Part shown: piece by piece, positions 5,288 through 35,837 of the stretch
Layout of the letters: the number at the start of each line of letters is the position of its first letter
Position numbering within the stretch: the first letter of the stretch is position 1
Source: Candidatus Omnitrophota bacterium
GTDB lineage: Bacteria > Omnitrophota > Gorgyraeia > Gygaellales > UBA12090
Length of the DNA stretch: 64,000 nt
Direction of reading: 5' to 3'
NCBI GenBank assembly: GCA_030674475.1
Contig: JAUSCZ010000033.1
Span: forward strand, 52,018-116,017
Translations under genes and position numbers: made by a program
Notes under the pieces: generated by a model
Databases searched by the model: none
Told to the model about the DNA's origin: nothing
What the model saw: the letters and a program-made list of their open reading frames with translations, nothing else

Positions 5288-5482
5288 ATGAATATCTATC
5301 CGAATAATTTAAAACTGCGGGAACTCTTTACCAAGGGCGGGGTGTTGCTTTTTAATATTTATCGGCCCGAAGCTGTCTATAAAGGCGAGATAACATTATT
5401 ACCCGTGGTGGATTGTTTTCAGAAGCGGGTTGTGCATATAAGGGAATATCTGTATAAGGAAAATGATGGAGAGGAGGAGTAA
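5288..5482 (+). CDS. small hypothetical protein (64 aa from the internal ATG)
   Basis: ORF with GTGAGGTG upstream; no recognisable domain. Confidence 0.3.
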   Translation: MNIYPNNLKLRELFTKGGVLLFNIYRPEAVYKGEITLLPVVDCFQKRVVHIREYLYKENDGEEE

Positions 5483-5484
5483 AG

Positions 5485-6519: not shown

Positions 6520-6663
6520 GGAGGTTCAAGGCGTTGATTCTTTGGATAAGGTAAAGGCTTAAAGATGAATAGAGAGGCTGTTATCTGAAAATGGTATCAG
6601 CCTCTTTTGTTTGTGGATTTTGCTATTGCAAAATCCAGGTTTATGCGTTAATATGATGGTTAT

Positions 6664-11179: not shown

Positions 11180-11846
11180 AGCAGAGCTAAGAACTAAGAA
11201 TCCAAAATTAAGAAATAAGCGGGTTTTGATTACTGCCGGGCCGACCTGGGTTCCTGTAGATGAGGTGAGGGTTATTTCAAATATAGCCAGCGGGGAGACC
11301 GGAATCCTGCTGGCGGAAAAACTGCTTAAACATGGAGCCGGGGTAACTCTGGTCCTGGGTCCGGTAGAGTCCTGTAGTATCAGTGGTTCGACTACGCCCA
11401 GGATTGATAAAAAGATTAAGCTGGTAAGATTTAAATTCTTTGATCAGCTAAGAAGCCGGCTTAAAAAAGAACTTCTTTCTAAAAACTACGATTGTGTCAT
11501 CCACTGCGCGGCAGTCTCTGATTTTAGGCCGTTAAATCCAATCAAGGGAAAACTTGCTTCGAATAAGACCCATAATCTGAAATTAACCGTTTTACCTAAG
11601 ATAGTCAACGAAATACGGAAATTACACCCCGCGGCAAAATTAGTGATGTTTAAGCTGGAGGCGGGTATTTCCGATATTGAGTTGATCCGCAGGGCCCGCG
11701 AAGCCTTGCTTAAGGCTCGAGCGGATTTAATAGTGGCCAATAGAATTACTCCTTCCTATAAAGCTTTTATTCTTAATAAGAATGAAACCCTGGGCTGTGT
11801 CCATTCCAAGAAAGAATTAGCGGATAAATTGGCTGATTTAATTTAG
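11169..11846 (+). CDS. coaB: phosphopantothenate--cysteine ligase (stand-alone CoaB domain)
   Basis: [25 protein letters not shown] matches the CoaB motif; ~225 aa. Confidence 0.7.
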
Positions 11847-11886
11847 ATTGAGCAGAATTGTCTAAGAAAATACTTGAGGTGAAGTT

Positions 11887-19878: not shown

Positions 19879-21852
19879 GTGGAGAAGTTTAAATTAACTA
19901 GTTCTTTCAAGCCGGCCGGGGATCAACCCCAAGCGATTGAGGCTTTAACCCAGGGGATTAAGGATGGCCGGAAATATCAAACCCTCTTGGGAGTTACCGG
20001 CTCAGGCAAGACCTTTGCCCTGGCTAATACAATCGCCAAAATCAATAAACCTACCTTAGTTATTTCCCACAATAAAACCCTGGCCGCCCAGCTTTACGGC
20101 GAATTTAAGGAATTCTTCCCGAAAAACGCGGTAGAATATTTTGTCAGCTATTACGACTATTATCAGCCGGAGGCCTATGTCCCTTCCACTGATACCTATA
20201 TTGAGAAAGACGCCTCGATTAACGACCGGCTGGACCGGCTTCGCCTTTCCAGCACTACTTCTTTGCTCAGCCGGCAGGACTGTTTAGTGGTGGCCTCGGT
20301 TTCCTGTATCTATAATTTGGGCTCACCCGAGGATTACCGGGAGTCTCTGGTTTTTCTGGATTTGGGCCAGATAATCCGGCGCGATGAATTATTAAGACAC
20401 TTAATTGACATCCAATACGAGCGCAATGATTACGAATTTATCCGCGGTAAAATCAGGGTGCGGGGGGACACGATAGAGGTCTACCCGGCTTACGCCCAGA
20501 GCGCCGTCCGGATTGAGCTTTTTGGCGATGAGATAGAAAAGATTATTGAGTTTAACCCGGTTGACGGTAAAAAGATAACCGAACTTTCTAAGATTGCTAT
20601 TTATCCGGCTAAGCATTTTATTATCCGCGGCCCCCGGATAGAAGACGCCCTAAAATCTATTTCTTATGAGCTCAGCCAACAGCTGGAACTTATGCGCTCC
20701 CAAAATAAAATCTTAGAGGCCCAGCGTTTAGAGTCGCGCACCAAATACGATATAGAGATGTTAAAGGAAATCGGCTATTGCCACGGGATAGAAAATTATT
20801 CCCGCCATCTTTCGGCCAGGCCCACCGGGAGCCGGCCGCACTGCCTGATAGATTATTTTCCTAAGGATTTTCTCTTGGTAATTGATGAAAGCCATGTAAC
20901 TATTCCCCAGATAAGGGGAATGTATGAGGGGGATAAGGCCAGAAAAGAGACTCTGGTAGAGTTCGGCTTTCGTCTGCCTTCCTGTTTGGATAACCGGCCC
21001 CTGAAATTTAACGAGTTTGAGGGTTTGATAAATCAGGCAATTTTTGTCTCAGCTACCCCGGCAGAATACGAGCTCAAAAAATCCAAGGGTCAGGTTATTG
21101 AGCAGATAATTCGGCCTACCGGTTTGATTGACCCGGAGATTATTATCAAGCCCATCGAGGGCCAGATTGAGGACCTGGTTAAGGAAATCTCCCAACGGGC
21201 CAAAAATAACGAGCGGGTTTTGGTAACTACCCTGACCAAGAGGATGTCTGAGGATCTATCCGCCTATTTAAAGGAAAAAGGCCTGAAGGTGAGATATCTA
21301 CATTCCGAGATTCAAACCCTTGAAAGGGTCAGGATACTTAAAGAATTGCGCCAGAAGAAGTTTGACTGCCTGGTAGGGGTAAATCTTTTGCGCGAGGGTT
21401 TGGACTTGCCCGAGGTTTCCCTGGTAGCCATATTAGACGCGGACAAGGAAGGCTTTTTAAGGTCAGCCACCAGCCTGATCCAGGTCTCCGGACGGGCCGC
21501 CAGGAATATTAACGGCCAGGTGATTATGTACGCGGATACCATTACCGGCTCAATGCGCCAGGCAATTGAAGAAAGCTCCCGGCGCCGGAAGAAACAGTTT
21601 GAATTTAATCTCAAGAATAAAATCACTCCCCGGAGTATCCAGAAGTCCATCCGCGAAGGCCTTGAGCTTTTGGATGAAGCCGAGAGCCTGGTTGAAGGCC
21701 TCACCGGCTTAGCCAAAGAAGAATACGAGCTGAGCTCCTATATCAGCGAGCTGGAATACCAGATGGAGCTGGCCGCCCGCAACCTGCAGTTTGAAGAAGC
21801 CGCCCGGATAAGGGATAAGATCAAGGAACTAAAGACAGGCAGCCCTGATTAA
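19879..21852 (+). CDS. uvrB: excinuclease ABC subunit B
   Basis: GVTGSGKTF Walker A, helicase motifs, C-terminal UvrB/UvrC interaction domain. GTG start. Confidence 0.95.
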   Translation: MEKFKLTSSFKPAGDQPQAIEALTQGIKDGRKYQTLLGVTGSGKTFALANTIAKINKPTLVISHNKTLAAQLYGEFKEFFPKNAVEYFVSYYDYYQPEAYVPSTDTYIEKDASINDRLDRLRLSSTTSLLSRQDCLVVASVSCIYNLGSPEDYRESLVFLDLGQIIRRDELLRHLIDIQYERNDYEFIRGKIRVRGDTIEVYPAYAQSAVRIELFGDEIEKIIEFNPVDGKKITELSKIAIYPAKHFIIRGPRIEDALKSISYELSQQLELMRSQNKILEAQRLESRTKYDIEMLKEIGYCHGIENYSRHLSARPTGSRPHCLIDYFPKDFLLVIDESHVTIPQIRGMYEGDKARKETLVEFGFRLPSCLDNRPLKFNEFEGLINQAIFVSATPAEYELKKSKGQVIEQIIRPTGLIDPEIIIKPIEGQIEDLVKEISQRAKNNERVLVTTLTKRMSEDLSAYLKEKGLKVRYLHSEIQTLERVRILKELRQKKFDCLVGVNLLREGLDLPEVSLVAILDADKEGFLRSATSLIQVSGRAARNINGQVIMYADTITGSMRQAIEESSRRRKKQFEFNLKNKITPRSIQKSIREGLELLDEAESLVEGLTGLAKEEYELSSYISELEYQMELAARNLQFEEAARIRDKIKELKTGSPD

Positions 21853-21910
21853 ATTTGAATAGGGTTTCACCAAATTCCCTCTTCTTTCAGAGAAAGGGTT
21901 GTCGGTTCAC

Positions 21911-21958
21911 CAAATTCCCTCTCCCTCCGGGAGAGGGCTAGGGCGAGGGGGAATGAAA
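21911..21958. repeat. GC-rich hairpin element family C (aattccctc...gggagagggctagggcgagggggaa), copy 1; likely the uvrB terminator
   Basis: 9 bp perfect stem ccctctccc/gggagaggg. Homologous copy at 53393-53447. Confidence 0.7.
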
Positions 21959-21965
21959 CGATTTT

Positions 21966-21995
21966 CTTGACAGTGTATTCAATTTTGAGTACAAT
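21966..21995 (+). promoter_or_regulatory. sigma70-like promoter (TTGACA-17-TACAAT) for the 22016 gene
   Basis: Consensus hexamers with correct spacing. Confidence 0.5.
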
Positions 21996-22015
21996 CGTAC
22001 TCAAAAGGAGCAGAA

Positions 22016-22588
22016 TTGTTAAATCTTTATATCACCAAATCCAGAATCAGGCAGGATCTGCTTGCCCTATTTTTCACCAATCCTTCTCAAAGGTATTACC
22101 TCAGAGAGATTCAACGTATTCTCGGGCATTCCGCCGGCACTATCCGCAGGGAGCTTTTAAGATTCCAGGAAGACAGCTTATTCACCACCAAGAGAAACGG
22201 CAATCTTTTATACTATTCGTTAAACAGGAAGCATCCTTTATTTGATGAATTAAAAAGTATTATTTCAAAAACAATCGGCATGGAAGGAAGCCTGAAAAAC
22301 GCGTTAGTATCGCTTAAGGGAATAAGTTTTGCCTTTATTTACGGGTCGTTTGCCTCCAGGAAAGAAAAATCCGCGAGCGATATTGACTTGATGGTAATCG
22401 GGGACCCTGATGCGTCTTTACTTAATGAGAAAATAGCTCAGTCGGAAAATAAGCTGAAGAGAGAAATAAACCACCTGGTGTATTCTTTAGAAGAATACAA
22501 GGCGAAGAAAAAGACAAAAAGCGGTTTTATCACGGATATTCTGAATAATCCCAAAATAATGCTGATAGGACAGGAAAGTGAATTATAA
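22016..22588 (+). CDS. winged-HTH (ArsR-like) + minimal nucleotidyltransferase fusion protein
   Basis: YYLREIQRILGHSAGTIRRELLRF HTH; GSFASR...DIDLMVIGD Pol-beta nucleotidyltransferase motif. Confidence 0.65.
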   Translation: MLNLYITKSRIRQDLLALFFTNPSQRYYLREIQRILGHSAGTIRRELLRFQEDSLFTTKRNGNLLYYSLNRKHPLFDELKSIISKTIGMEGSLKNALVSLKGISFAFIYGSFASRKEKSASDIDLMVIGDPDASLLNEKIAQSENKLKREINHLVYSLEEYKAKKKTKSGFITDILNNPKIMLIGQESEL

Positions 22589-22605
22589 TACCAGGAAAAC
22601 TTTCC

Positions 22606-24414
22606 ATGAGTAACCCTAAATATAAAAATAGCCGCGGCCGGCTGCGCATTGGCGACGATTGGAACGCGATAACAATTATCGCGCTTTCGCAAAACAATCC
22701 TTTAAAGGCAATTGCTGAATTGGTGGAAAATAGCATTGACGCCCAGGCCGGACATATTACCATTATCCGCGGTAAAGAACACGGAGAGCACTACCTTAAA
22801 GTTATCGACGATGGACAGGGTATTCCTTGCGATGGGGAAGGTATTCCTGATTTTAAGTATGTGGCAACCCATATCTGTGATTCGCTGAAACGGCGTTTAA
22901 AAGAAGGAGGCTTCCAAAACATTCAGGGAGAATTCGGTATCGGCCTGCTTAGTTTTTGGACCGTCGGACATAAACTATTGATGGTCTCTTCCGGCAAAGA
23001 TGGCAAGGCCTACCAAATGAATATGGAGAAAGGTAAGCCAGGTTATTCAATATCCCACCGTCCCCATCTGCTACCCATAAAAGGAACGCAGTTAACCATA
23101 GCCTCTTTGCTCGCGGGAATACGTATGCTCAGCGGCGAAAAAATTCAACGATATTTAGCCTCCGAGTTAAGAGACCGGATTCGTCATTCAGGCGTGAAGA
23201 TTAAGATTATTGACCGAACCGCTCGCGCGGAGTTTGAGGTTGAACCGCGCCAATATGAAGGCCAGCTTATCCATGATCTTCCTTTGCTTACAACGGCTTT
23301 CGGTGAACCTATTTATGTGGAGATATATATCGCGGGAAAAAATAGCGAAAACAGCGTTAGCCTTTTTCGTTCAGGGACACGGGTGCTCCCTAATATCTCT
23401 ATACTTGATTTCTTTCAATGTGAGCCCTGGACTTCCGGTTATTTTGAGGGAATTATTGATGCTCCCTTCTTACATCTTACGCCCGGCACCAGAGACGGAA
23501 TAATTCATGATGAACTATTGTCCGGATTCTGTGATTCTATAGCGCCTCTTAAAGAACGGCTGACGGCAATTGCTTTGGAGCAAGGCAAAGCTGAAGAAGA
23601 GCGGATGAGCAAGAATATACTCCGTTCCGTGCAGAAGGCATTCCTTGATGCTATGACCGCTTTGCCGCCCGAAGAATATGATTGGTTTGGTATCGAGCAA
23701 AAGAACGCGCATCGTTCGTCCACTGACAACAATGATATCGCGAAGGAAAATGGCGTAATGATGGTTCCTGACGCGCTAAGGCAGGGAGAGAAGAAAAGCG
23801 GGCAGAAAGAGTTTTTCGAAATCGCCGGGCCGCTCTTTTCCACCCGTATCCAGCCAGGTTCGGCACTGGTGCAGGTGGGCAAGACGAAACCTTTCCGGGC
23901 TATCGGATTAGATCGCAACAAACGTCAGGTAGAAGAGAATCTCTCATATCTATGGTGTATTACGGAAGGAAAAGGAGATCTCGATAAATTAGACGGCGAG
24001 ATGGTTGTTTTTAACGCCCCCCTGGAACCCGGCTTGAGTAAATTAAAACTGGTGATTCAACGAGACGATATACGTTGCGAGACAGAAAGCATCGTTACCG
24101 TTGTGGATTCTTTGTTTAAGGTTTCGGCTGAAAACAGTGAATTCCCACGCAAGGGATTACCCGGCTATACGCTAGAAAGCGCCCCTGGATATACCTGGCG
24201 CTCGCGCTATGACGAAAAACGCAATATTGTTATCATCAACAGCGGCCATCGCGATTTCATTTACGCCGGACGCGAGAAAGCCAGAAAACTGCGCTATATC
24301 TGCCGCCTCTTCGCCAAAGAATTGATTTTGCAAAATTTTGCCGGTCTGTCTTCCGGAGAACTCCTGGAGCGTCTGGTCGAATTATCATTATACACTGAAG
24401 AGAATTTGCGCTGA
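22606..24414 (+). CDS. GHKL (Bergerat-fold, MORC/HSP90/MutL-like) ATPase, 602 aa
   Basis: N-box ELVENSIDA, G1 DDGQGI, G2 GEFGIGLLS. Confidence 0.7.
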   Translation: MSNPKYKNSRGRLRIGDDWNAITIIALSQNNPLKAIAELVENSIDAQAGHITIIRGKEHGEHYLKVIDDGQGIPCDGEGIPDFKYVATHICDSLKRRLKEGGFQNIQGEFGIGLLSFWTVGHKLLMVSSGKDGKAYQMNMEKGKPGYSISHRPHLLPIKGTQLTIASLLAGIRMLSGEKIQRYLASELRDRIRHSGVKIKIIDRTARAEFEVEPRQYEGQLIHDLPLLTTAFGEPIYVEIYIAGKNSENSVSLFRSGTRVLPNISILDFFQCEPWTSGYFEGIIDAPFLHLTPGTRDGIIHDELLSGFCDSIAPLKERLTAIALEQGKAEEERMSKNILRSVQKAFLDAMTALPPEEYDWFGIEQKNAHRSSTDNNDIAKENGVMMVPDALRQGEKKSGQKEFFEIAGPLFSTRIQPGSALVQVGKTKPFRAIGLDRNKRQVEENLSYLWCITEGKGDLDKLDGEMVVFNAPLEPGLSKLKLVIQRDDIRCETESIVTVVDSLFKVSAENSEFPRKGLPGYTLESAPGYTWRSRYDEKRNIVIINSGHRDFIYAGREKARKLRYICRLFAKELILQNFAGLSSGELLERLVELSLYTEENLR

Positions 24415-24590
24415 TTGCAGGCCGGGTTACCCTACTAACAGGAGCAAATTGACCCGCGGAAGATAAAAAGCGAGAATGCCAAGATTCAAGACCCCTTTTA
24501 TCCTATCCACGAGAGCAGATTTGCCAACTTAGAGACAAATTTTACCCAACAGACAAGCTTAGCGCCATGTTTGTTGGGTAATTTATTTTG

Positions 24591-24650
24591 TTGACATTTG
24601 TTACCTAACAAGTTAAATTATAGTATGGTTTGTTAGGTAACAGGAGGACT
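24591..24650 (+). promoter_or_regulatory. promoter with inverted-repeat operator (ttgttacctaacaa / ttgttaggtaaca) upstream of small protein A
   Basis: TTGACA ... TATAGT flanked by a 13 nt inverted repeat. Confidence 0.5.
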
Positions 24651-24651
24651 T

Positions 24652-24972
24652 ATGAGAGGTGTTATAAAAGGAGTATTGGCGGAAGAATTGGAAAATTCTC
24701 TTCGCATGAAGAAGGAATACGAAGGAGCTTTGAGGAATTTGCCTAAAGGGTGTCTTGCGGTAAGAAAAATACGAGGCCATGAGTATTGTTACCTGGCAGA
24801 AAGAGTGGATAAGAAAGTAAAGTATATTTACAAAGGTAAACTATCCGCAGAAGAAAAGAAAAGGTATGAAGAGGCCAAAGAATTAAGGGCTAAATACAGG
24901 AAATTATTGTCTCAAGTCAAAAAGCAAATAAGATTCTTAAGGAGTTCTCTGCGTGGAAAAGAAGCAGTCTGA
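24652..24972 (+). CDS. small basic protein, paralog A (putative regulator/antitoxin-like partner of the nucleotidyltransferase)
   Basis: ~60% identical to the 27362-27679 product; operator palindrome upstream. Confidence 0.6.
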   Translation: MRGVIKGVLAEELENSLRMKKEYEGALRNLPKGCLAVRKIRGHEYCYLAERVDKKVKYIYKGKLSAEEKKRYEEAKELRAKYRKLLSQVKKQIRFLRSSLRGKEAV

Positions 24973-25256
24973 TTTATGCCTTGAAATCTTAAGGAGGCTC
25001 CATAAGGCCGGTATCTTGGATGATTTAATCCTTATAGGCAGTTGGTGCGTATATTTCTATAGAGAATATTCCAGCAATGTGTCCTACATGGATCAAACCA
25101 CTATGCGAAATCAGTCATTCAGGACAAAGAAAGACAGAAAACTTGAACTTGTTTTCAACCGAAAAAGAAATTTCCAGGGGATGGCGTAAGATTGCCGTTA
25201 AGGTGGTTGATATTTTTGGTAATGATACGATAAGAGTAATTAAGGTGAATATATAA
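24953..25256 (+). pseudogene. decayed fusion: N-terminal ~45 codons of nucleotidyltransferase paralog A joined to a 3' remnant of a type III mod gene
   Basis: MEKKQSDLCLEIL...LIGSWCVYFY matches the start of the 27660 protein. SFRTKKDRKLEL and, in another frame, RKIAVKVVDIFGNDTIRVIKVNI* match the C-terminus of the 29779-32064 Mod. Confidence 0.7.
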
Positions 25257-25299
25257 GTTTTTATATGGCCAATATATGATAAAAGGGGGGGGGTAATGC

Positions 25300-26991
25300 A
25301 TGAAAAAAAATCTTTTGGATACAAAAACAGCTTCATGGGGGGAGTTAATTAAGAATGGAAGAACCTTTATGGTCCCAAGATTTCAAAGAGATTATTCGTG
25401 GGAGGAAGAGCAATGGGATGATCTTTGGTATGACTTGGTTAATTTAGAGGAAGAAGATTTTCATTATATGGGGTATTTAGTATTACAAAATAGCCCCACG
25501 AATGAATATCTGGTTATCGACGGACAGCAGAGATTGACGACTTTAAGTATTATTGCTTTAGCGGTGATTCAACACATCGCGGAATTGATTGAGAAAGGTA
25601 AGGACCATAAAAACAACGAAGAGCGCAAGAAATTGTTGATGGACTCGTTTCTTGGATATAAAGATCCGGCTTCTTTGGTAGCCAAGAGCAAATTAACGCT
25701 TAATCGTAATAATAATGATTTTTATCAAAGTTACTTATTGCGTTTTAGAAAACCAACGAGTAAAAGTAAACTCAAGCCTTCTGAAAAACTTCTTATTAAC
25801 GCTGTCGAATATTTTTATGAAAAGATAAAGTTTAAGTTCGGTCAGGATATTTCAGGTGAGAAATTGGCTGATTTTCTTGATAAGAAAACGGCGGATAAAT
25901 TTATATTCACGTTTATTACTGTTGATAATGATTTGAATGCTTACAAAGTATTTGAAACACTCAATTCAAGGGGGGTGAGGCTATCTCCCACGGATTTGTT
26001 AAAAAATTATTTGTTTATGGTGGCGGCTCAAAAAGGCGAAACTGATATCGATCAAGCTGAAAGACAATGGCAAAGTATTAATAATATTTTAGGTGGAATA
26101 GAGCTTACCACATATCTAAGGCATTTTTGGAATTCGAGAAATATGATCGCCAGAAAGCAGAATTTATTTAAAGTTGTTAAGAATTCAATTACTGACGCGG
26201 ATCAGGCCTTCGCTTTATTGGATGAACTTGAAAATAACGCGCAACTTTACGCGGCTTTTTCTCAGCCAGAAGATGAGCTTTGGAAACAGGCTGAGCAAAG
26301 CGAATATATTAGACAATTAAAATTATTCGGCGTGACCCAGTGTTATCCTCTTTTGTTGGCGGCTTATAAGAAGTTTGACCCGAATGAATACGCTCGTTTA
26401 TTGAGATGCTGTTGTGTGATTGCTTTTCGATACAATGTGATTGGCGGGCTAAATCCCAATAAGCTGGAAGATGAATACAGCAAAACGGCTCAGGATGTTT
26501 ATGCCGGCACGCTGAAAAACGCGCGGGAAATATTTCATAACCTGAAATCGGTTTATGTCATTGATGAAGAGTTTGAAAGCTCATTCGCCGCGAAAAGTAT
26601 TACCACCAAGGGAAAGGGCGCGAAATTAGTCAGATATATCCTTTTCTCATTGGAAAATCAGATAAGCAATAAAAAATATGATTTTAGTGATAGCTCCGTA
26701 ACTATCGAGCATATATTACCGGAAAATCCTTCTCAAAGCTGGGAGTCAAATTTTACTATTGAAGAGCAAATTCAATTTGTATTTCGTTTAGGCAATTACG
26801 CGCTTTTGGAAGAATCAAAAAATAAAATGTGTCAAAACGACTTTTATCCGACAAAGAAAGAAATTTACAAAACAAGCAGTTATAAAATAACAGCCCAAGA
26901 TAGCGTATGCGATGAATGGAACCCCGAAAGAATTTCAGAGAGACAAAAGAAGTTGGCAAAATACGCTAAAACTGTCTGGAAATTTGAGTGA
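25300..26991 (+). CDS. GmrSD-like type IV (modification-dependent) restriction enzyme, DUF262 + DUF1524
   Basis: N-terminal DUF262 (ParB-like) motifs (...VIDGQQRLTT), C-terminal His-Me/HNH-like SVTIEHILPEN. Confidence 0.75.
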   Translation: MKKNLLDTKTASWGELIKNGRTFMVPRFQRDYSWEEEQWDDLWYDLVNLEEEDFHYMGYLVLQNSPTNEYLVIDGQQRLTTLSIIALAVIQHIAELIEKGKDHKNNEERKKLLMDSFLGYKDPASLVAKSKLTLNRNNNDFYQSYLLRFRKPTSKSKLKPSEKLLINAVEYFYEKIKFKFGQDISGEKLADFLDKKTADKFIFTFITVDNDLNAYKVFETLNSRGVRLSPTDLLKNYLFMVAAQKGETDIDQAERQWQSINNILGGIELTTYLRHFWNSRNMIARKQNLFKVVKNSITDADQAFALLDELENNAQLYAAFSQPEDELWKQAEQSEYIRQLKLFGVTQCYPLLLAAYKKFDPNEYARLLRCCCVIAFRYNVIGGLNPNKLEDEYSKTAQDVYAGTLKNAREIFHNLKSVYVIDEEFESSFAAKSITTKGKGAKLVRYILFSLENQISNKKYDFSDSSVTIEHILPENPSQSWESNFTIEEQIQFVFRLGNYALLEESKNKMCQNDFYPTKKEIYKTSSYKITAQDSVCDEWNPERISERQKKLAKYAKTVWKFE

Positions 26992-26994
26992 TTT

Positions 26995-27222
26995 ATGGCG
27001 CCGCGCGCGCAAGGTTATGAAAAACTATTCCCGCCTTTTGTGCCGGAGCTTAGGAAGCGGGTTAAGGAGTGGCGGGATAAGGGCTACGAGGGGGCGAGCG
27101 CGACATCAAGGGCTCTTTTAAGCTGGCGGTTCAAAGAAGACCTCTTGCTTATGGAATATAAGCTTACAGTGAGAGAAAGACGAGATAATGTCTACTGTCC
27201 GGGTCTGACCCCTAAAACCTAA
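26995..27222 (+). pseudogene. 5' fragment of a type III res gene (duplicate of the 33113 gene N-terminus)
   Basis: GYEKLFPPFVPELRKRVKEWRDKGYEGASA; ~90% nt identity to 33205-33345, then diverges and stops. Confidence 0.7.
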
Positions 27223-27361
27223 AACCGCTTGAAAGTTACCATACTTAGTATGACATTCCTGCATTTGTATGGTAACTTTTTTGTTTGACAATGGTTGTCA
27301 TACAATATATACTATTATATAGTTTGTATGGTAACTAATTCAATCGAACGGAGAGTTTAAT

Positions 27362-27679
27362 ATGGGAGTCATAAAAGGAGTGCTTAAAGAAGAACTCGAG
27401 AATTCTATACGCATGAAAAGCGACTATGAGCGTGAATTGGCAAAGCTGCCTAAAGGCAGCCTCATTAAGAAAAAGGTTAAGGGGCATGAGTACTATTATC
27501 TTTTGTTGCGGGAGAAAGGGAAGGTAAGATTCATCTATAGAGGGAAAGTGTCTGATGAAGAAATAAAAAAATACAAAGAAGCAAAAGAATACAGGGCTAA
27601 GTACAGAAAATTATTATCTCAGGTAAAAAAACAAATTAGATTCTTAAGGAGCACTCTGCGTGGAAAAGAATCAATATGA
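27362..27679 (+). CDS. small basic protein, paralog B
   Basis: Paralog of the 24652 product; upstream inverted repeats agttaccatac / gtatggtaact. Confidence 0.6.
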   Translation: MGVIKGVLKEELENSIRMKSDYERELAKLPKGSLIKKKVKGHEYYYLLLREKGKVRFIYRGKVSDEEIKKYKEAKEYRAKYRKLLSQVKKQIRFLRSTLRGKESI

Positions 27680-28352
27680 ACTATGCATTAAGGTTCTAAA
27701 AAGATTTGATAAGGCCGGAGTTCTAAAAGACGTTATTCTTATAGGTAGTTGGTGTATTCCATTCTATAAAGAATATTTTGCGGGCATAAAGTATATCTCG
27801 ACCATTAAGACAAGAGATGTAGATTTCTTGATTCCCAACCCGCGCGGAATCAGGGCTAATGTGAATATCCCAGAATTATTAAAAGACTTAGGATTTATCA
27901 TTGGTTATAGGGGAGCAAAAGGATATATTAAATTAGAACATCCTGATCTGGTAGTGGAATTTTTATCTCCAGAGAAAGGAAAAGGCACCGATAGGCCAAT
28001 CCCCTTACCGAAGTTAGGCGTTAACGCGGTTGCTCTGAGATTTTTGAGTTTGCTTACTGATAATGTAATTAAGGCTAAAGTTGAAGATTTTGAAGTCTTA
28101 TTACCTCATCCTGCCAATTTCGCCCTCCACAAATTAATAATTTTCCAGCGTAGACTCAAAGAAGATAAAGCAATAAAAGACAGAAATGCGGCGGTAGAAA
28201 TTCTTAAAGCTTTGATAACTAAGGGCGAAGCGGTAACTATCAAGCACGTTTTTAATTCCATGCTTCCAAAATGGCAGAAAAAAGTTATAAAAGGATTGCA
28301 GGAAGCCAAAGAAAGAGAGATTATTCTTATACTACAAAATGCCGGAAAATAG
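27660..28352 (+). CDS. Pol-beta superfamily nucleotidyltransferase, paralog B (AbiEii/DUF1814-like toxin candidate)
   Basis: LIGSWCIPFY...TRDVDFLIPN (hGS ... DxD). Start overlaps the small protein. Confidence 0.55.
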   Translation: MEKNQYELCIKVLKRFDKAGVLKDVILIGSWCIPFYKEYFAGIKYISTIKTRDVDFLIPNPRGIRANVNIPELLKDLGFIIGYRGAKGYIKLEHPDLVVEFLSPEKGKGTDRPIPLPKLGVNAVALRFLSLLTDNVIKAKVEDFEVLLPHPANFALHKLIIFQRRLKEDKAIKDRNAAVEILKALITKGEAVTIKHVFNSMLPKWQKKVIKGLQEAKEREIILILQNAGK

Positions 28353-28451
28353 TCTATGTAGTGTATGTATAAAGGAATAAGGGGTTATGCCTCAAAACTC
28401 CAAAATAGTCCTTGACGTTGGAATTGATAAGAGATTGGATAAATTGTAAAT

Positions 28452-29732
28452 TTGAGGTCTGACCCTATTAGCTCATTGACTGTTCACATAGGAGAATTAA
28501 ATGTGGCCATATATTTTTTCAATCAATACAGTGCTTTAATTAATGAATTTAACATAGACAATGATAAGGTGGGGCAACAAAAAAAGAAGATTTTTGTTTC
28601 GATGTGGTATGGAGAAGAAAATGATGGCACTAAGCAAGAACAATCGGATCTTTATGACGAATATTTTAAAGGAGCAATCGAGAAAAAAGGAATCTACAAA
28701 GTAATTTCTACAAAGATAAAAGATAATGATAAGGATATTGATATTGATTTTGGTCTGAAATATTTGCTTGAAACCACGATAGCTGATGATACTAGAAAAG
28801 ATGATATAAGTTTTGACATTTTCAGAAAGATTATCGAAGCCAGTCTAATTATTTGTGATGTTACGCCGATTGGAAAAATTCAGGATAAAGAAAAGCCGGT
28901 ATTTTGCGATAATGTCATGGCAGAATTAGGATTAAGCTTAGCATGGAAACTACCCGAACAAGTTATCATCCTTTTTAATATAGAAAATAGTTTTAAATTC
29001 TCCTTGAACGAGCTTCCATTCAATATCAAAGGCTATTTTGTCCACAGATTAGATTTCAATAATCAAAATTTTAAAAAAGACTTATTAAAGATTATTAAAG
29101 TAAGATTTGAAGGCATAAATGAAAAAAAGAGTATTTTTATAAAAAATATAAAGAGCAAGCTTGATCAGGATTCTATTAGCGCTTTAGCGGGACGAAATGG
29201 ATTGATGTTTTTTGATCAGAAAGTAGATGTGCATACGATTCGCTATTTATTATCTCTTGGTATTATACGAACCGAACAATTTCCATCAAGACCTATTAGT
29301 TTTGGATATTGTTTGACCGAAATGGGCAAAGTTGTTCTTACTCAACTCGGTATACAGTTATTTCCAGAAGAATTCATTGATTTTTATTTAGTGCGTTACT
29401 GGGAGGGATATTCTGCTGCGAAGGGTTATGCCCCGCACAATTTTGAAGAAAAGCAGAAAGCTTTCGAAAAAGCTTATGGAATTAAAGATTGGAAAGATAG
29501 TCTACGAATTTTTGTAGAACAAATACTGCAAGAGGTTAAAAAAGTAATTGAAGATGCTCCGACAGTAAAAAGAGGAATAGAAGAGCGTTCTAAGGAAAAA
29601 CAAAATGGATATAGTCATGATTTAGAGATTTTTCCCTATTTCGTTGATTCCTATCCCTTTGAGTTGGTGAATTCAACAGTTTCAAAATGGTTGAAGTTGA
29701 CGCATAATAAGAAGAAAAATGAATCAGCATGA
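28452..29732 (+). CDS. hypothetical protein with N-terminal nucleoside 2-deoxyribosyltransferase/SLOG-like domain
   Basis: IFVSMWYG ... LIICDVTP ... NVMAELGLSLAW...VIIL resembles the N-deoxyribosyltransferase/TIR-like Rossmann signature. Start uncertain: TTG at 28452 or GTG at 28503. Confidence 0.4.
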   Translation: MRSDPISSLTVHIGELNVAIYFFNQYSALINEFNIDNDKVGQQKKKIFVSMWYGEENDGTKQEQSDLYDEYFKGAIEKKGIYKVISTKIKDNDKDIDIDFGLKYLLETTIADDTRKDDISFDIFRKIIEASLIICDVTPIGKIQDKEKPVFCDNVMAELGLSLAWKLPEQVIILFNIENSFKFSLNELPFNIKGYFVHRLDFNNQNFKKDLLKIIKVRFEGINEKKSIFIKNIKSKLDQDSISALAGRNGLMFFDQKVDVHTIRYLLSLGIIRTEQFPSRPISFGYCLTEMGKVVLTQLGIQLFPEEFIDFYLVRYWEGYSAAKGYAPHNFEEKQKAFEKAYGIKDWKDSLRIFVEQILQEVKKVIEDAPTVKRGIEERSKEKQNGYSHDLEIFPYFVDSYPFELVNSTVSKWLKLTHNKKKNESA

Positions 29733-29778
29733 ACCAATTTAAGCGTCTCTACAATGTTACCCTCGGCTGATCCAGGAT

Positions 29779-32064
29779 TTGTTTTTTAAAGGTAAAAAGA
29801 TAATGAGATTATCGGATAACGAAAAAAGAGACGCGATAAAGTTGCTTCAGGAAGGGAAGCCTTTGCCTGATAAATACCGCTTTCTTTTGTTTGCTGATGA
29901 CCGGGAGGTTGAGCTGGTGTGGAATGGGAAGACGCAGGAAGTTTGCAATCTGGTTTTGCCCTTTCAGACTATTGAGCATATTGATGAGCCGAGGAGTGAG
30001 AGAATAAAAAAGGGCGGTTATGTTGGGGATTTGTTTGATCCCTCCGGGCGTCAGATTCGGGGATGGACGAATAAGCTGATATGGGGAGATAACAAGCTGA
30101 TTTTATCGTCTTTAAAGAATGGGCCAATGAGGCGGGAAATTGAAAAACAGGGCGGTTTAAAGCTGATCTATATTGACCCGCCGTTTGACGTGGGAGCGGA
30201 TTTTTCAATGAATGTTGAGATCGGAGACGAATCCTTCACCAAAAAGCCGTCAGTTATTGAAGAGGTAGCTTATCGGGATACCTGGGGGCAAGGTGCGGAT
30301 AGCTTTATTGCTATGATTTACGAGCGGTTGAAGCTCATGCACGGACTTTTGGCGGATGACGGCAGTATTTATGTGCATTGTGATACACGTGTTAGTTCAT
30401 ATATGAAATTAGTACTAGATGATGTGTTTTCCAAAGAAAATTTCATCAATGAAATCATTTGGAAAAGATCAACTGCCCATAGCGACAATAGAGCTTATGG
30501 AAATCTGCATGATACGATTTTCTATTACACAAAAAGCGATGATGCAGTCTTTAATCCCGTTTATGATCCCTATTCGGAAGACTACATTCAAACCTATTAT
30601 CGGCATGATGACGCTAAGGGTAAATTCTTGGATCGAGATTTGTCTGCAAAAGGTTTATCAGGCGGAGGCTATCAGTATGAATGGAAAGGTAAAAATGGAA
30701 TTTGGCGTTGTCCAAAGACCACTATGGAGCGATACGAAGCCGAGGATAAAATATATTACACTTCCAACGGTACACCACGATATAAGCAATATCTAAATGA
30801 GATGCCGGGTATTTCTGCGCAAGACATTTGGACCAATATATTTGCGGTTAATTCACAAGCCAAAGAGCGAATAGACTATCCAACACAAAAACCAGAGACT
30901 CTTCTTGAGCGTATTATCAAAGCGTCTTCCAACGAAGGCGATCTTGTTGCTGATTTCTTTTGTGGTTCCGGCACGACTTTAGCAGTTGCGGAAAAATTGG
31001 GGCGGAAATGGATTGGTGCAGATCTCGGACGTTTTGCTATTCATACATCCCGTAAGCGGTTAATTCAGGTTCAGCGCGAGATGAAAAAAGAGGGTAAGAA
31101 TTTTAGGGCGTTTGAGATTCTTAACCTCGGCAAATATGAGCGGGAGCAATATGTCAATGTTGATGTGGATATCCGGGAGCAGGAAAAACAGCAGATTTTA
31201 GAAAACAAAGAAAAGCAGTTTATTGAACTGATCCTTTCTGCCTATAACGCCCAAGCTGTGGATTCTTACAATTCGTTTGTCGGTAAGAAGCGTGACCGGC
31301 TGGTTGCGGTCGGTCCTGTTGATACGCCGGTATCAGCCGCTTTTGTTGATCAGGCGATTAAGGAAGCTAAGGAGAAAGGAATCACTAAATTTGATGTTCT
31401 CGGTTTTGATTATGAGATGGGGATTGATTTCGCGCAACTTAGCCGCCAGGGCGTTGATGTGCAGTTTAAGGTTATTCCCCGGGAAGTTTTTGACCGCCGC
31501 GCGGTGGAAAAAGGGCAGGTGAAATTCTACGATGTTGCCTACATTGAAGTGAAGCCGATCATCAAAGGGCGGGGGAATAATAAAACGATAGCGGTTGAAC
31601 TGTGCGATTTCAGCGTATTTTATAATCAGGACAGCGTTGAAGAGATAGAGGGATCGCTTAAAGAAGGTTCAAGTAAGATCGTAATTGAGAATGGACAAGT
31701 TATTAAGGTATCCAAAGACAAAAAGACAGCGGTGGTAACTAAAGAAGTTTTGACCAAGAAATGGACGGACTGGGTGGATTACTGGTCGGTTGATTTTAAT
31801 ATGGAGAACAGAAAAGAGATTGTCCGGGTGCCGGTAAATCCCCCCTTGCTCCCCTTTTCCAAAGGGGGGTTGGAATTTGAAGAAAAATGGACTGGCGGGT
31901 ATATATTTGAAAATGAGTGGCAGTCATTCAGGACAAAAAAAGAGAGAAAACTTGAGCTTATATCTGCTGAGAAAGAAGTTTCCCTGGGGCGGCGTAAGAT
32001 TGCCGTTAAGGTGGTTGATATTTTCGGCAATGATACGACAAGAGTAATTGAGGTTAATATATGA
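29779..32064 (+). CDS. mod: type III restriction-modification DNA N6-adenine methyltransferase (Mod)
   Basis: Motif IV IYIDPPF and motif I DFFCGSGTT in the beta-class order. Start may be the ATG at 29803. Confidence 0.85.
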   Translation: MFFKGKKIMRLSDNEKRDAIKLLQEGKPLPDKYRFLLFADDREVELVWNGKTQEVCNLVLPFQTIEHIDEPRSERIKKGGYVGDLFDPSGRQIRGWTNKLIWGDNKLILSSLKNGPMRREIEKQGGLKLIYIDPPFDVGADFSMNVEIGDESFTKKPSVIEEVAYRDTWGQGADSFIAMIYERLKLMHGLLADDGSIYVHCDTRVSSYMKLVLDDVFSKENFINEIIWKRSTAHSDNRAYGNLHDTIFYYTKSDDAVFNPVYDPYSEDYIQTYYRHDDAKGKFLDRDLSAKGLSGGGYQYEWKGKNGIWRCPKTTMERYEAEDKIYYTSNGTPRYKQYLNEMPGISAQDIWTNIFAVNSQAKERIDYPTQKPETLLERIIKASSNEGDLVADFFCGSGTTLAVAEKLGRKWIGADLGRFAIHTSRKRLIQVQREMKKEGKNFRAFEILNLGKYEREQYVNVDVDIREQEKQQILENKEKQFIELILSAYNAQAVDSYNSFVGKKRDRLVAVGPVDTPVSAAFVDQAIKEAKEKGITKFDVLGFDYEMGIDFAQLSRQGVDVQFKVIPREVFDRRAVEKGQVKFYDVAYIEVKPIIKGRGNNKTIAVELCDFSVFYNQDSVEEIEGSLKEGSSKIVIENGQVIKVSKDKKTAVVTKEVLTKKWTDWVDYWSVDFNMENRKEIVRVPVNPPLLPFSKGGLEFEEKWTGGYIFENEWQSFRTKKERKLELISAEKEVSLGRRKIAVKVVDIFGNDTTRVIEVNI

Positions 32065-32165
32065 ATCAATTAAGCAATGACCATTTCGAGGATATCCTCG
32101 AAATGGTAGATAGCAGAAAACATAAAAAAGATTACGAGCAAAAAAAGCAAGAGGTTATTATTTAG

Positions 32166-32963
32166 ATGAAGTGTATCCATATTTATTCAGATGAAAGTCG
32201 GCATAGAAATGAACGATTTTTGCTCCTGGCGGGCTTATGGATTGAGGAATCAAAAATCAAAGCGGCTGAGAATGAAATTACTGCTTTCCGCAAAAAACAC
32301 GGTTTCGTTAATTCTCAAGGGCAGCATGCCGATTTTCTTGGTGAGTTTAAGTGGACAAAGGTTTCTCAGCGTTATTTGCCGGTCTATAAAGAATTGGCTG
32401 ATATAGCGTTTAAATGGATTGCGGAAGATAGAGCTCGTTTTAATGTGATTCTTGTTGACACTCAGGATGCAGCTGTTACGGCGTTCGGAAACATAAAGGA
32501 AGAGGGATATTTTAAGCTTCTTTATCAGCTTTATTACCACAATTCAAAAACTCCTGCTCTATATAAAATCTATCCTGACAGTATCACTAATCCGGTTCAA
32601 GCGCGCGTTAGTCTTGATAAGCTACAGCAGTGTCTTGAAGTGGCCCTGCGCAACAGGTTTCTACCGCTTCTGAACCCCGCGGAGACTCAAGAGCCGGTCT
32701 CTTTTGTGAATAATATTTTACCAATTGATTCAAAGCATGCGCCGTTTATTCAGATTGCCGATGTGATCATGGGCGCGATCGGGTACTTACAAAACGGTTT
32801 GTTTAGAAATCCCGCGGCGAAAAAGGCAAAAGTTGAATTGATGAAATATATTTTTGATAAAATAACTCTATCGGGCGCTATACAGGTGCAAGGAAAGAAA
32901 TACTTTGTCGCGCGGTCAACGAAGTTTAATATATGGTTGTTCCGGCCAAAAAAAACCTCTTAA
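32166..32963 (+). CDS. DUF3800-family protein
   Basis: N-terminal IHIYSDESRH and the overall pattern of DUF3800; located between mod and res. Confidence 0.6.
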   Translation: MKCIHIYSDESRHRNERFLLLAGLWIEESKIKAAENEITAFRKKHGFVNSQGQHADFLGEFKWTKVSQRYLPVYKELADIAFKWIAEDRARFNVILVDTQDAAVTAFGNIKEEGYFKLLYQLYYHNSKTPALYKIYPDSITNPVQARVSLDKLQQCLEVALRNRFLPLLNPAETQEPVSFVNNILPIDSKHAPFIQIADVIMGAIGYLQNGLFRNPAAKKAKVELMKYIFDKITLSGAIQVQGKKYFVARSTKFNIWLFRPKKTS

Positions 32964-33112
32964 AATTTTAAGAGGTTTTTTTGGAGTCCTGGGCCCTGGG
33001 TCAATGCCCCGTGTGACATCAGTCACAGGATACGTGACCCAGTAACTCCAAAAATAGGATATCACAAATCTCGAGTTTGTCAAGGTTTTAGATAGATAGA
33101 GAGAGAAATAAT

Positions 33113-35797
33113 ATGGCATTGCATAAAGATTTTCCTAAGGATAAGTTCGCGATTTTAGAACCGGAGATTCGCTGGTTTCCGGCTGATGAGGCGTTGCGTG
33201 CCCCGGGAGGCTATGAAAAACTGCTCCCGCCTTTTGTGCCGGAATTGAGAAAGCGTGTTAAGGAGTGGCGGGATAAGGGCTACGAGGGGGCGAGCGCGGT
33301 ATCAAAGGCTCTTTTAAGCTGGTGGTTCAAAGAAGAACATCTTGGCTTTGGGGTGGACGGCAACGCGTTTTCATTCCGGTATTATTTTGCCCAGCGTGAG
33401 GCAGTTGAAACTATTATCTGGTTGTATGATGTTGCCGGAGTACGAAACAAATATGACCTTTTGCCGTTTGATTCATTGGGGCGGGTAAGCCCGAATATGT
33501 TTGATGAGGACTGGCTTAGGTTAGTTATTAAGATGGCCACCGGAAGCGGCAAAACAAAGGTAATGAGTTTGCTTCTGGCATGGTCTTATTTTCATAAGCT
33601 CTATGAGCCGGAGTCGGGGCTTTCCCGCAATTTTCTTTTAATTACGCCGAATATTATCGTGCTTGAGCGTATCAAGACCGATTTTGGCGGATTAAAGATA
33701 TTCCATCATGACCCTGTTTTGCCGGATAATGGATATGAAGGTAGAAACTGGCAGGATGATTTTCAGATAACCTTGCATTTACAAGATGATTTGACCGCGA
33801 TTTCTCCTACCGGAAATATTTTTCTTACCAATATACACCGTGTTTATGAGGGCGATGTCAAGGAGTCGTCTTTTAGCGATGGGGATTTGACGGATTATTT
33901 TTTAGGGAAAAAGCCTGTTTCAAAAACAAACGAATCCTTGGTTGAGCTTAGTAATGTGGTCCGGGAAATTGATGAGATCGTTGTTTTTAACGATGAAGCC
34001 CATCACATTCACGATCCCAAGATGGCCTGGTGGACATCAATCCAAGATATAAATAATAAATTGAAACAGAAAGGCAGGCAGATTTCTTTACAGATAGACT
34101 GCACGGCAACGCCAAAACATGATAATGGATCAATCTTCGTGCAGACGATTTCCGATTATCCGCTGGTTGAGGCAATTTATCAAGGGGTGGTTAAGACTCC
34201 CGTGCTTCCGGATCAGGCCAGCCGGGCCAAATTACAGGAAAAACAGAGCGCGCTGTTTACCGAGAAATATGAAGATTATATCAATCTTGGTATCGAAGAA
34301 TGGAAAAAGGCTTCCAAGGAACTTGAACCGACCGGGAAAAAAGCTATTTTGTTTATTATGACCGATGATACAAAAAACTGTGATGAGGTGCAGGCGTATT
34401 TAGAAAAGAATTATTCCGCTTTAAACGGTAAAGTTTTGACTATTCATACGAATAAAAGCGGTGATATATCGGAAAAGGTAACCGGTAAGGCCAAGGAAGA
34501 ATTGGATCGCCTGCGGAAAGAAGCCAATGAAATTGATGGACTGGAAAGCCCTTATCAGGTAATCGTTTCGGTTTTAATGCTCAAGGAAGGATGGGATGTT
34601 AAGAACGTTACCACAATAGTAGGCCTTCGAGCATACGCGGCGGCATCAAACATTTTGCCGGAGCAAACGCTTGGCCGGGGTTTGAGGCGGATGTTTTTCG
34701 GCCAGGAAGATGTGGAAGAATATGTAAGCGTGGTGGGAACGCCGGCATTTATGGATTTTGTGGAGTCAATTAAGGCGGAAGGCGTGGATTTGGAAAAGCG
34801 AAAGATGGACTTAACGACAAAGGCGATTACGCCGACGGTCATTGAAGTTGACCGGGACAATCCCAAAAAAGATATTCAAAGGTTGGATATTGAGCTTCCG
34901 ATTTTAACGCCGAGGATTCAGAGGGAATACAAAGACTTGGCGAGTTTGAATGTAGCAGGTTTTCAGCATGGTAAGTTGAAGGTAAAGACGTTTAGCGAGC
35001 AGGAGCAGCGAGAGATTGTGTTCAAGCACGTGGTTGAAGAAAAGGTTCACCATACGACTATTCTGGAAAGCAATATTGAGCCGAACTATCAGAGCGTGGT
35101 TGGTTTTTTCGCTCAAAGCATTATGCGGGAGCTTCGCCTTTTTGGGTGTTACGACATTTTATTCGGTAAGGTTAAAGAGTTTATTTATTCGCGCCTGTTT
35201 GAAACAGCGGTTGACCTTAATGACAAGAATGTTTTAAGAAACCTTTCAGAAATTGAAGCCATAAAGACAATAATCCAGACTTTTAAGAATGAAATCAACG
35301 CCTTAACGGTGAAGGATGTTGGTGATACCGAGATTAAGAATTATATTAAGGTCAGCAGCAGCCGCCCGTTTGTCGTTAATGACCGGATGTATTTAGTGCC
35401 CAAGAAAAGCGTATTTAACAGAATTGTCGCAGATAATCAGTTTGAGCTTGATTTCGCGGATTTCCTGGAACGATTGGGCGATGATGAAGTTATTTCCTTC
35501 GCGAAGAATTATTATGGAGTGCATTTTAAGATAGACTATAAGAACGCCGACGGGACGATAGCGAATTATTACCCGGACTTCTTTGTTAAAACTGATGAAA
35601 AGACGGTGTATATCGTTGAGACTAAGGGGCGCGAGGATTTGGATGATTCTTTGAAGATTAAAAGGCTTGCTCAATGGTGCGATGACGCGAACGCCCGGCA
35701 GAAAAAGATTACTTATAAAATGCTCTATGTGAAGCAGGAAGTTTGGGAGAAGTATAAGCCTAAGAATTGGAAAGAGCTTATTGTTGCTTGCAATTAA
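33113..35797 (+). CDS. res: type III restriction enzyme Res subunit (SF2 helicase + nuclease)
   Basis: Walker A MATGSGKTKV, DEAH box FNDEAHH, helicase C-terminal motifs; ~890 aa. Confidence 0.85.
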   Translation: MALHKDFPKDKFAILEPEIRWFPADEALRAPGGYEKLLPPFVPELRKRVKEWRDKGYEGASAVSKALLSWWFKEEHLGFGVDGNAFSFRYYFAQREAVETIIWLYDVAGVRNKYDLLPFDSLGRVSPNMFDEDWLRLVIKMATGSGKTKVMSLLLAWSYFHKLYEPESGLSRNFLLITPNIIVLERIKTDFGGLKIFHHDPVLPDNGYEGRNWQDDFQITLHLQDDLTAISPTGNIFLTNIHRVYEGDVKESSFSDGDLTDYFLGKKPVSKTNESLVELSNVVREIDEIVVFNDEAHHIHDPKMAWWTSIQDINNKLKQKGRQISLQIDCTATPKHDNGSIFVQTISDYPLVEAIYQGVVKTPVLPDQASRAKLQEKQSALFTEKYEDYINLGIEEWKKASKELEPTGKKAILFIMTDDTKNCDEVQAYLEKNYSALNGKVLTIHTNKSGDISEKVTGKAKEELDRLRKEANEIDGLESPYQVIVSVLMLKEGWDVKNVTTIVGLRAYAAASNILPEQTLGRGLRRMFFGQEDVEEYVSVVGTPAFMDFVESIKAEGVDLEKRKMDLTTKAITPTVIEVDRDNPKKDIQRLDIELPILTPRIQREYKDLASLNVAGFQHGKLKVKTFSEQEQREIVFKHVVEEKVHHTTILESNIEPNYQSVVGFFAQSIMRELRLFGCYDILFGKVKEFIYSRLFETAVDLNDKNVLRNLSEIEAIKTIIQTFKNEINALTVKDVGDTEIKNYIKVSSSRPFVVNDRMYLVPKKSVFNRIVADNQFELDFADFLERLGDDEVISFAKNYYGVHFKIDYKNADGTIANYYPDFFVKTDEKTVYIVETKGREDLDDSLKIKRLAQWCDDANARQKKITYKMLYVKQEVWEKYKPKNWKELIVACN

Positions 35798-35837
35798 AAG
35801 AAAGTCTGAAGAAGCAACTTGGACAAAGAATTGAAAT

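Follow-up and report, generated by a model that had tools for sequence, protein, structure and literature searches.

A GmrSD-type restriction gene as the probable survivor of a second, eroded type III restriction-modification operon in an Omnitrophota defence island

We analysed a 64-kb window (64,000 nucleotides, nt) from a metagenome-assembled genome (MAG) of a Candidatus Omnitrophota bacterium, in which an intact gene for a GmrSD-like type IV restriction enzyme is flanked by the tail of a type III methyltransferase gene (mod') and the head of a type III restriction gene (res'). In our reading, to which we assign a probability of roughly 0.8, the segment 24953-27224 represents the remains of a second type III restriction-modification (R-M) operon, locus A, with its surviving cargo gene GmrSD. 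Within the variable defence island that separates uvrB from birA, locus A would have lain just upstream of the intact locus B (27362-35797) and would have held a GmrSD of the HEC-06 type between mod and res, in the slot where locus B holds a DUF3800 gene. Deletions would then have taken nearly all of locus A save this cargo: one would have joined codon 53 of a nucleotidyltransferase (NTase) gene in frame to mod codon ~714, and res would have lost codons ~3-24, been cut at codon 78 and become joined to unrelated DNA (J). GmrSD, being independent of Mod and Res, would have kept its ribosome-binding leader and catalytic motifs. At present it would provide type IV restriction, transcribed from the autoregulated promoter of the small gene sA, beside type III restriction by locus B with its DUF3800 passenger.

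The remnants were sought by self-blastn of 24400-27400 against the whole window, which gave three non-trivial matches (features in Table 1). Positions 25112-25254 match 31921-32062 in the intact mod (86.0% over 143 nt, E 3e-42), the res head at 27012-27147 matches 33208-33344 (89.8% over 137 nt, E 4e-47), and a small gene with the 5' end of an NTase gene, 24658-25070, matches 27365-27777 (69% over 424 nt, E 2e-44). The mod-tail and res-head repeats are direct, ~140 nt long and 86-90% identical. The first-pass annotation of this DNA had described an open reading frame (ORF) of 78 amino acids (aa), starting at 24953, which begins like an NTase and then becomes the C-terminus of Mod, with a frameshifted continuation up to 25256. 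Gapped alignment and protein comparison bear this out: NTase codons 1-53 are joined in frame to Mod codon ~714 onward (QSFRTKK...), a 1-nt indel near 25151 shifts the frame, and the continuation ends in the stop at 25254-25256. Since the NTase protein similarity extends right to the junction, we regard this ORF as an NTase::mod fusion; no microhomology is evident there with the locus B copies serving as proxies. The similarity of the mod tail is far above chance, but the homology begins exactly at 25112 (CAGTCATTCAGG) and not at 25093, as had been supposed. Similarly, the duplication of the res head that had been proposed for 26995-27222 is confirmed at ~90% nt identity for 26995-27147 only, corresponding to res codons ~25-78, whereas the remaining part is not res.

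Judged against homologues, the loss of res codons ~3-24 was in frame, between the ATG-GC and GAG-GC positions. J matches neither res nor other island proteins, and a search for more locus A remnants in 27148-27361 and 24415-24651 (blastx with the island proteins, blastn-short with all loci) gave nothing above chance. With 48 frameshifted mod codons and ~54 res codons left, locus A does not qualify as a working type III system.

Table 1. Features of the uvrB-birA region in the window (positions in the 64-kb stretch)
Feature	Position	Strand	Remarks
uvrB	19879-21852		
HTH-NTase (PDC-M05A), MntA-like	22016-22588		in the island, not in a mod-res slot
HATPase_c_3 protein	22606-24414		
Promoter-like TTGACA-17-TAAATT (24591-24619) and perfect 13-nt inverted repeat (24599-24611 / 24630-24642)	24591-24642	+	5' of sA
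sA, DUF6788 (PF20586)	24652-24972	+	106 aa, intact; now without its PF12281 NTase partner
NTaseA'	24953-25111	+	first 53 codons, PF12281-type NTase; truncated, in-frame fusion to mod tail; self-blastn and protein comparison
mod'	25112-25256	+	last ~48 codons of type III Mod; 86% nt identity to 31921-32064; natural stop 25254-25256
GmrSD cassette leader with ribosome-binding region	25257-25299	+	G9 run 25285-25293; conserved in L081, L082, L083, L099
GmrSD, HEC-06 family type IV restriction enzyme	25300-26991	+	563 aa, intact; Pfam, PADLOC, motifs
res'	26995-27147	+	type III Res N-terminus remnant, codons ~25-78; 90% nt identity to 33185-33344; ends at codon 78
J	27148-27224	+	77 nt; joined to res'; same junction and sequence in L101; ends in GGTCTGACCC
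Promoter-like TTGACA-17-TATACT (27285-27313) and three GTATGGTAAC operator-like repeats	27232-27336	+	5' of sB
sB (DUF6788-like)	27362-27679	+	intact paralogous module with NTaseB
NTaseB (PF12281)	27660-28352	+	overlaps sB by 20 nt
ORF426	28452-29732	+	rare protein; own promoter-like segment U (28395-28467) 5' of it
Intact type III Mod (N6_N4_Mtase)	29779-32064	+	761 aa; PADLOC MTase_III 1.8e-116; PF01555 3.8e-43; source family of mod'
DUF3800 / PDC-M04A cargo	32166-32963	+	in mod-res slot of intact operon
Intact type III Res (ResIII helicase, C-terminal TnsA-like nuclease)	33113-35797	+	894 aa
birA, then coaX	35838 onward		

The gene between the two scars encodes a single polypeptide with the domains PF03235 (7e-40, residues 15-239) and PF07510 (4e-25, residues 422-554), which the PADLOC model HEC-06 matches over its full length (1-562, 1e-216) and which belongs to the GmrSD/HEC-06 family. 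It has 7054 homologues; an exact-sequence look-up returned no contig, and a protein from an NCBI Omnitrophota MAG (P0001) is 100% identical. The motifs DGQQR (74-78) and EHILP (470-474) are kept. Mutating the DGQQR or EH motifs abolished the phage defence of HEC-06, one representative of which was protective (Payne et al., bioRxiv 10.1101/2024.01.29.577857), and enzymes of the GmrSD family, including GmrSD, BrxU and TgvAB, work alone on modified DNA (PMC4619093, PMC12707154, PMC11411939). The GmrSD described here is most likely still active, providing type IV restriction. A strong sigma-70-like site was not found directly 5' of the gene, where nothing compares with the sites before sA and sB, and no plus-strand terminator-like site was found between sA and GmrSD; transcription most likely proceeds from the sA promoter through the fusion ORF. 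The G9 run of the leader lies 6 nt 5' of the start codon, where relatives have G4-G8. Such a run could be slippage-prone and alter the initiation of GmrSD translation.

Canonical type III operons (EcoP1I, EcoP15I) consist of mod followed by res on one strand and encode an N6_N4 methyltransferase and an SF2 helicase with a C-terminal PD-(D/E)xK-type nuclease. We surveyed the mod-res gap by a Res scan of one genome per GTDB species, which yielded 80 loci (L numbers denote loci and contigs). Those from Omnitrophota and Planctomycetes MAGs have 82-90% identity, and those from the many Patescibacteria 65-76%; in 71, the end of mod as well as the start of res is present. The canonical order holds in these 71 relatives and, as in EcoP1I and EcoP15I, the two genes nearly adjoin in 21, with gaps of 3-9 nt. 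In contrast to the canonical operons, two thirds of the family have the junction opened by cargo: the gap measures 380-2383 nt in 47 loci, and 83-195 nt in the remaining three. Each of the 47 filled gaps holds 1-4 ORFs (75 in total), all but one on the operon strand, which form over 40 mutually unrelated clusters; in many, Pfam finds no domain. The domains that do occur, NYN+KTSC, Schlafen AlbA_2+HATPase_c_4, AAA_15/AAA_21 ATPases, HEPN_Apea, trypsin-like protease, DUF4145, DUF3800 and Bro-N-like, are those of typical defence-island families; the DUF3800 family recurs as slot cargo in L005, L006, L073 and L075, and Bro-N-type proteins in L080. GmrSD, which lies precisely in the gap from the mod stop to the res start, thus occupies a normal cargo position, the one that DUF3800 takes between the intact mod and res of locus B. 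Homologues of sA, the NTase or ORF426 do not occur near mod in any of the 80 loci, the sA-NTase pair is solitary elsewhere and ORF426 is solitary in L112; we therefore rejected these three genes as parts of the operon.

Relatives of this GmrSD with at least 80% identity display a wide range of decay of the surrounding type III genes. On the 2.6-kb contig L082, a GmrSD of 83% identity lies between mod (codons 594-761) and res (codons 1-128), both frames open to the contig ends. L106 has mod codons 1-77, GmrSD and res codons 1-186, followed by stops near the contig end, and L081 has mod codons 1-47 joined to 722-761, GmrSD, and res codons 1-26 joined to 795-890. The window retains NTase' fused to mod codons 714-761 on one side and res codons 25-78 on the other. 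In a different island, L083 encodes a GmrSD with 96% aa identity beside ~6 mod and ~12 res codons, L084 and L099 keep short, diverged scars of a few codons, and in L096-L098 GmrSD lies among housekeeping genes with no scar seen; L107 has the order GmrSD-ORF255-mod. In relatives, res begins 7-10 nt past the GmrSD stop. What is conserved is the GmrSD ORF together with the leader that carries its ribosome-binding site, and the flanking type III genes are eroded at five or more distinct breakpoints. In the window they are far removed from the cargo gene: the left one cuts mod at codon ~714, the right one res at codon 78. As GmrSD lay in its normal slot while breakpoints elsewhere vary among relatives, it did not itself break mod or res.

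The large mod and res deletions of L081 (323-556 and 2327-2650) are exactly in frame, and similar 'E(V/L)EL(V/I)' codons stand at both ends of the mod deletion. This suggests a deletion between short repeats, with selection keeping translation running into GmrSD.

Two syntenic relatives were found via sA. L100 carries uvrB, DUF559, M05A, HEPN, HATPase, sA, 15 codons of NTase', Bro-N, a full-length res and birA, and is ~90% identical to the window in uvrB, HATPase, res and birA. L101 carries uvrB, sA, NTase' (15 codons), Bro-N, res codons 1-78 with J, type I R-M remnants, RadC and birA. The first-pass annotation had called the recombination recent, which the divergence does not support. Between the remnants and the intact copy, 10-14% of nt differ (proportion of synonymous differences, pS, 0.26-0.32 for mod' and 0.21 for res'), and the remnants carry a frameshift and an additional 5' deletion. 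Compared with the intact genes of the window, with L043 and with L100, they show much the same identity (85-90%), and locus A was thus a diverged relative rather than a fresh duplicate. The sA/sB and NTase parts are saturated (pS 0.82-0.86; 0.82 for sA versus sB), in contrast to the moderate pS of mod' and res', so the two halves of the 'second copy' differ in age. The res'/J breakpoint at 27147/27148 is present, together with J, in L101 (220 nt, 90.5%), whose uvrB is only 82% identical; the truncation therefore predates the split of these lineages. The decay of the fragments is, in itself, ordinary pseudogene scarring.

Several points weigh against our reading. There is no contig with a complete, verifiably intact mod-GmrSD-res arrangement, L082 being only 2.6 kb long. 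The sA-NTase pair is free-standing in L103-L105, and the fusion may accordingly join formerly separate neighbours instead of parts of one operon. Owing to the frameshift, the ribosomes reading the fusion ORF stop 110 nt short of the GmrSD start codon, and translational coupling is lost. The sharing of junctions among the window, L100, L101 and L108 is incongruent, and no simple linear order of deletions fits all arrangements. Finally, the expression and activity of GmrSD are what we infer from its sequence and surroundings.

How the tandem layout arose is a question apart from the identity of the remnants. Locus B may have integrated into the resident res by homology on one side only, or the layout may go back to an older tandem acquisition or duplication. 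In the first case (homology-facilitated illegitimate recombination), locus B would be incoming DNA, introduced by a single homologous crossover within the resident res body and an illegitimate join at res codon 78, which would have stranded res' and GmrSD upstream; the window would then never have held two complete operons. We consider this possible, though rather unlikely. It agrees with the orthology of the window res to the birA-adjacent res of L100, with which it is collinear into birA at 90.2% nt identity, like the flanking housekeeping genes. It also agrees with the succession of res', unrelated J and a complete block from sB to DUF3800, and with the age mosaic, in which sA/NTaseA versus sB/NTaseB are synonymously saturated and the mod and res pieces are not. 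However, L101 has type I remnants instead of locus B after res' and J, so that J either predates locus B at this position or was reused. Furthermore, incoming DNA would leave the mod' tail and the NTase' fusion on the left unexplained, and the identity between L100 and the intact copy of the window is not clearly different for the res head (88.5%) and the res body (90.2%).

A second alternative places the cause of the erosion in the cargo itself. A GmrSD of the HEC-06 type could be incompatible with methylation by the host Mod, for some specificities, which would select for loss of mod, whereupon the orphan res would decay. If this were true, the mod'...res' scars would record a conflict inside the operon rather than neutral decay. 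In the GmrSD clade, mod is broken in every instance with readable flanks except the short L082, at no fewer than five breakpoints (window, L081, L106, L083, L099), and hmmsearch with the clade profile found no GmrSD-like protein among the 75 cargo ORFs of the 47 filled slots with intact mod and res. This contrast is confounded, since one sample was gathered via intact res and the other via GmrSD, and we regard such a conflict as doubtful, with a small chance of being the explanation.

It is considerably less probable that mod'-GmrSD-res' is a silent cassette, swappable with DUF3800 through the mod tail and res head as homology arms. The arms do match locus B in order and orientation, and the incongruent junctions imply exchange of segments between lineages within these flanks; in addition, different cargo accompanies the same res'/J junction, GmrSD in the window and Bro-N in L101. 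Direct repeats of ~140 nt with 86-90% identity are, however, a poor RecA substrate, and a crossover between them would delete the mod of locus B and not swap cargo. Programmed cassette switching would require a dedicated recombinase or high-identity repeats for reversible exchange; no recombinase gene lies within 21853-35837, and the frameshift and deletions of the remnant are typical of neutral decay. We also compared the arms family-wide: over 63 loci, the mod tail is 70% conserved versus 64% for adjacent sequence, and the res head 66.5% versus 68.5%. As neither is clearly more conserved than the gene bodies, we rejected specially conserved arms and do not claim dedicated ones.

In line with the first-pass annotation, the fragments derive from a type III locus other than the intact one, and recombination or deletion made their junctions; its suggestion that GmrSD was inserted into that locus is not supported. 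An insertion of GmrSD, alone or on a mobile element, into an intact mod-res operon that was thereby destroyed would account for type III fragments on both sides. We judge it very improbable, because mod' reaches the natural mod stop, res follows so closely in relatives, the breakpoints are at a distance from GmrSD, other cargo fills the slot in so many loci, L082 carries GmrSD between open frames, and the flanks examined contain neither a transposase or integrase gene nor flanking direct repeats. The least credible alternative is a chimeric contig or a mis-join through repeats shared among metagenome strains: although the source is a MAG, several island variants coexist in groundwater data sets and L114 (Logan assembly, run SRR13727527) ends inside a 34-nt stretch identical between mod' and the intact mod, the divergence of the repeats is too great for a collapse or for the mis-joining of long contigs, L114 agrees with window positions 24082-25207 at 100% identity across the NTase'::mod' junction, L101 independently has res'/J, and the 3' flank of sA recurs independently in L100, L101 and L108, which together make an artefact very unlikely.

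Locus B itself has both the Mod and the Res of a type III R-M system, with Res matching PF04851 (1.7e-15), the TnsA-like nuclease (3.8e-05) and PADLOC REase_III (1.9e-26). The left edge of the wreck belongs to another kind of element, a two-gene module of DUF6788 and PF12281 genes, characterized by overlapping genes, inverted repeats at both promoters and the solitary occurrence of the pair in L103-L105, where the DUF6788 gene is paired with a 230-aa PF12281 gene. The DUF6788 small proteins constitute a very large family of high conservation: there are 1075 sA homologues, many with a precomputed PF20586 match, and the named matches are all from Omnitrophota; among the 120 best of the 1075 matches, DUF6788 identity is 79-92%, with PF12281 NTases as partners. 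The searched literature yielded no description of this pair. Gene overlap, operators and free-standing occurrence suggest that it is toxin-antitoxin-like, and sA is probably an autoregulator deprived of its NTase partner. The site upstream of sA is a putative promoter under autoregulation, from which GmrSD is likely to be transcribed. The operator-like repeats differ between the copies, TGTTAGGTAACA at sA versus GTATGGTAAC at sB. We also considered CCGGGTCTGACCCC as a dispersed repeat and rejected it, as the window has one exact copy.

ORF426, encoded between NTaseB and mod, has 11 homologues among 5.8 billion proteins and no Pfam, PADLOC or NCBIfam match. It has its own promoter-like segment and, in L112, is solitary with housekeeping genes around it, which gives it the look of an independent passenger of one gene.

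The same pieces (sA, NTase', ORF426, mod', Bro-N and res') are joined in at least four different ways at the uvrB-birA site. A further arrangement is found in L108-L111: res'(1-54), U, sA' (last 25 codons) with NTase' (15 codons), ORF426, mod' (codons 1-73 joined to 742-761), Bro-N, a second res'(1-54) with U, ORF264 and birA. These are four independent groundwater assemblies with the same mosaic, in which the res'(1-54)/U junction is duplicated; their independence indicates that the variant is real and widespread. The NTase'(15)/Bro-N junction is common to L100 and L101, and the res'/J junction to the window and L101. Both cannot fit one tree, which implies that segments were exchanged between lineages within the interval from sA to the res head. 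In L100 the Bro-N gene stands at the usual cargo position, and its full-length res (10191-12873) has a 1-nt frameshift at codon 22 and adjoins birA; there is no mod anywhere in that island. L100 further has a DUF559 gene (5290-5802) and a HEPN gene of 154 aa (6430-6954), at places where the window has 61 nt (21901-21961) and 17 nt (22589-22605). Since the ~90%-identical, syntenic L100 keeps the HEPN gene there, the HTH-NTase of the window has lost its HEPN partner.

The 10-mer GGTCTGACCC has only two copies in the window (27202-27211 and 28456-28465), at the ends of J and U, and they mark where homology to related genomes stops. It also occurs in L101 (10476) and twice in L108 (437 and 3337); both L108 copies follow a res head cut at codon ~54. 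Possibly it acts as a recombination or transcript-start signal. Beyond the 10-mer, a homology of J (27148-27230) to U (28395-28475) was rejected, as the alignment was no better than shuffles (p ~0.4 upstream, 0.03 including the motif).

Defence genes embedded in R-M operons are known. RloF / GmrSD-DUF262 genes are embedded in type I hsd loci of Campylobacter jejuni (Machnicka et al. 2015, PMC4619093), and TgvAB in the type I system of Vibrio cholerae VPI-2, where tgvAB alone is 17 times commoner than the five-gene operon (PMC11411939). As in these cases, the genes of a classical R-M operon enclose, in the same orientation, the gene for a modification-dependent nuclease of the GmrSD family, which presumably deals with phages that evade the R-M system through modified DNA. 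The host in our case is type III, however, the position is mod-res and not hsdS-hsdR, and in the window the host is reduced to ~150-nt scars. PrrC, an anticodon nuclease in the EcoprrI type IC locus, is the classical example of cargo in an R-M system (PMC12707154). It is functionally coupled to its host R-M proteins, whereas GmrSD persists here without Mod or Res and thus does not need such coupling. BrxU, a GmrSD homologue in the pEFER BREX island that is cited both in that source and by Payne et al., is a single-polypeptide DUF262-DUF1524 type IV enzyme independent of the surrounding methylation-based system. This resembles the present case, but the host is BREX and not type III R-M, and Payne et al. 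give only 23.7% identity over 11% alignment coverage for HEC-06 versus BrxU.

HEC-06 was defined by 'guilt by embedding' as a GmrSD-like defence gene in Hma systems (Payne et al., bioRxiv 10.1101/2024.01.29.577857), and the GmrSD of the window matches this model full length with the required motifs. The models PDC-M04A (the DUF3800 protein) and PDC-M05A (the HTH-NTase) were obtained in that work, too. The host systems surveyed there were Hma, BREX, DISARM and type I R-M, whose embedded genes the mod-res cargo resembles in arrangement. The sole 'type III' mention is DRT type III, and erosion of the host around the cargo is absent from its description. In the literature searched, we found no description of the type III mod-res position as a site for embedded defence genes; this position, and the repeated erosion of the host around one cargo clade, are what is new here.

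The type III family to which locus B belongs is widespread in Omnitrophota, Planctomycetota and Patescibacteria, and its mod-res junction acts as a cargo slot. As the embedding survey omitted type III operons, candidate defence genes can readily be drawn from this slot. The embedded gene can outlive its host system, which explains why 'solitary' GmrSD genes in several phyla keep a few mod and res codons at their edges. The uvrB-birA hotspot, in turn, provides useful material on how defence islands get rebuilt.

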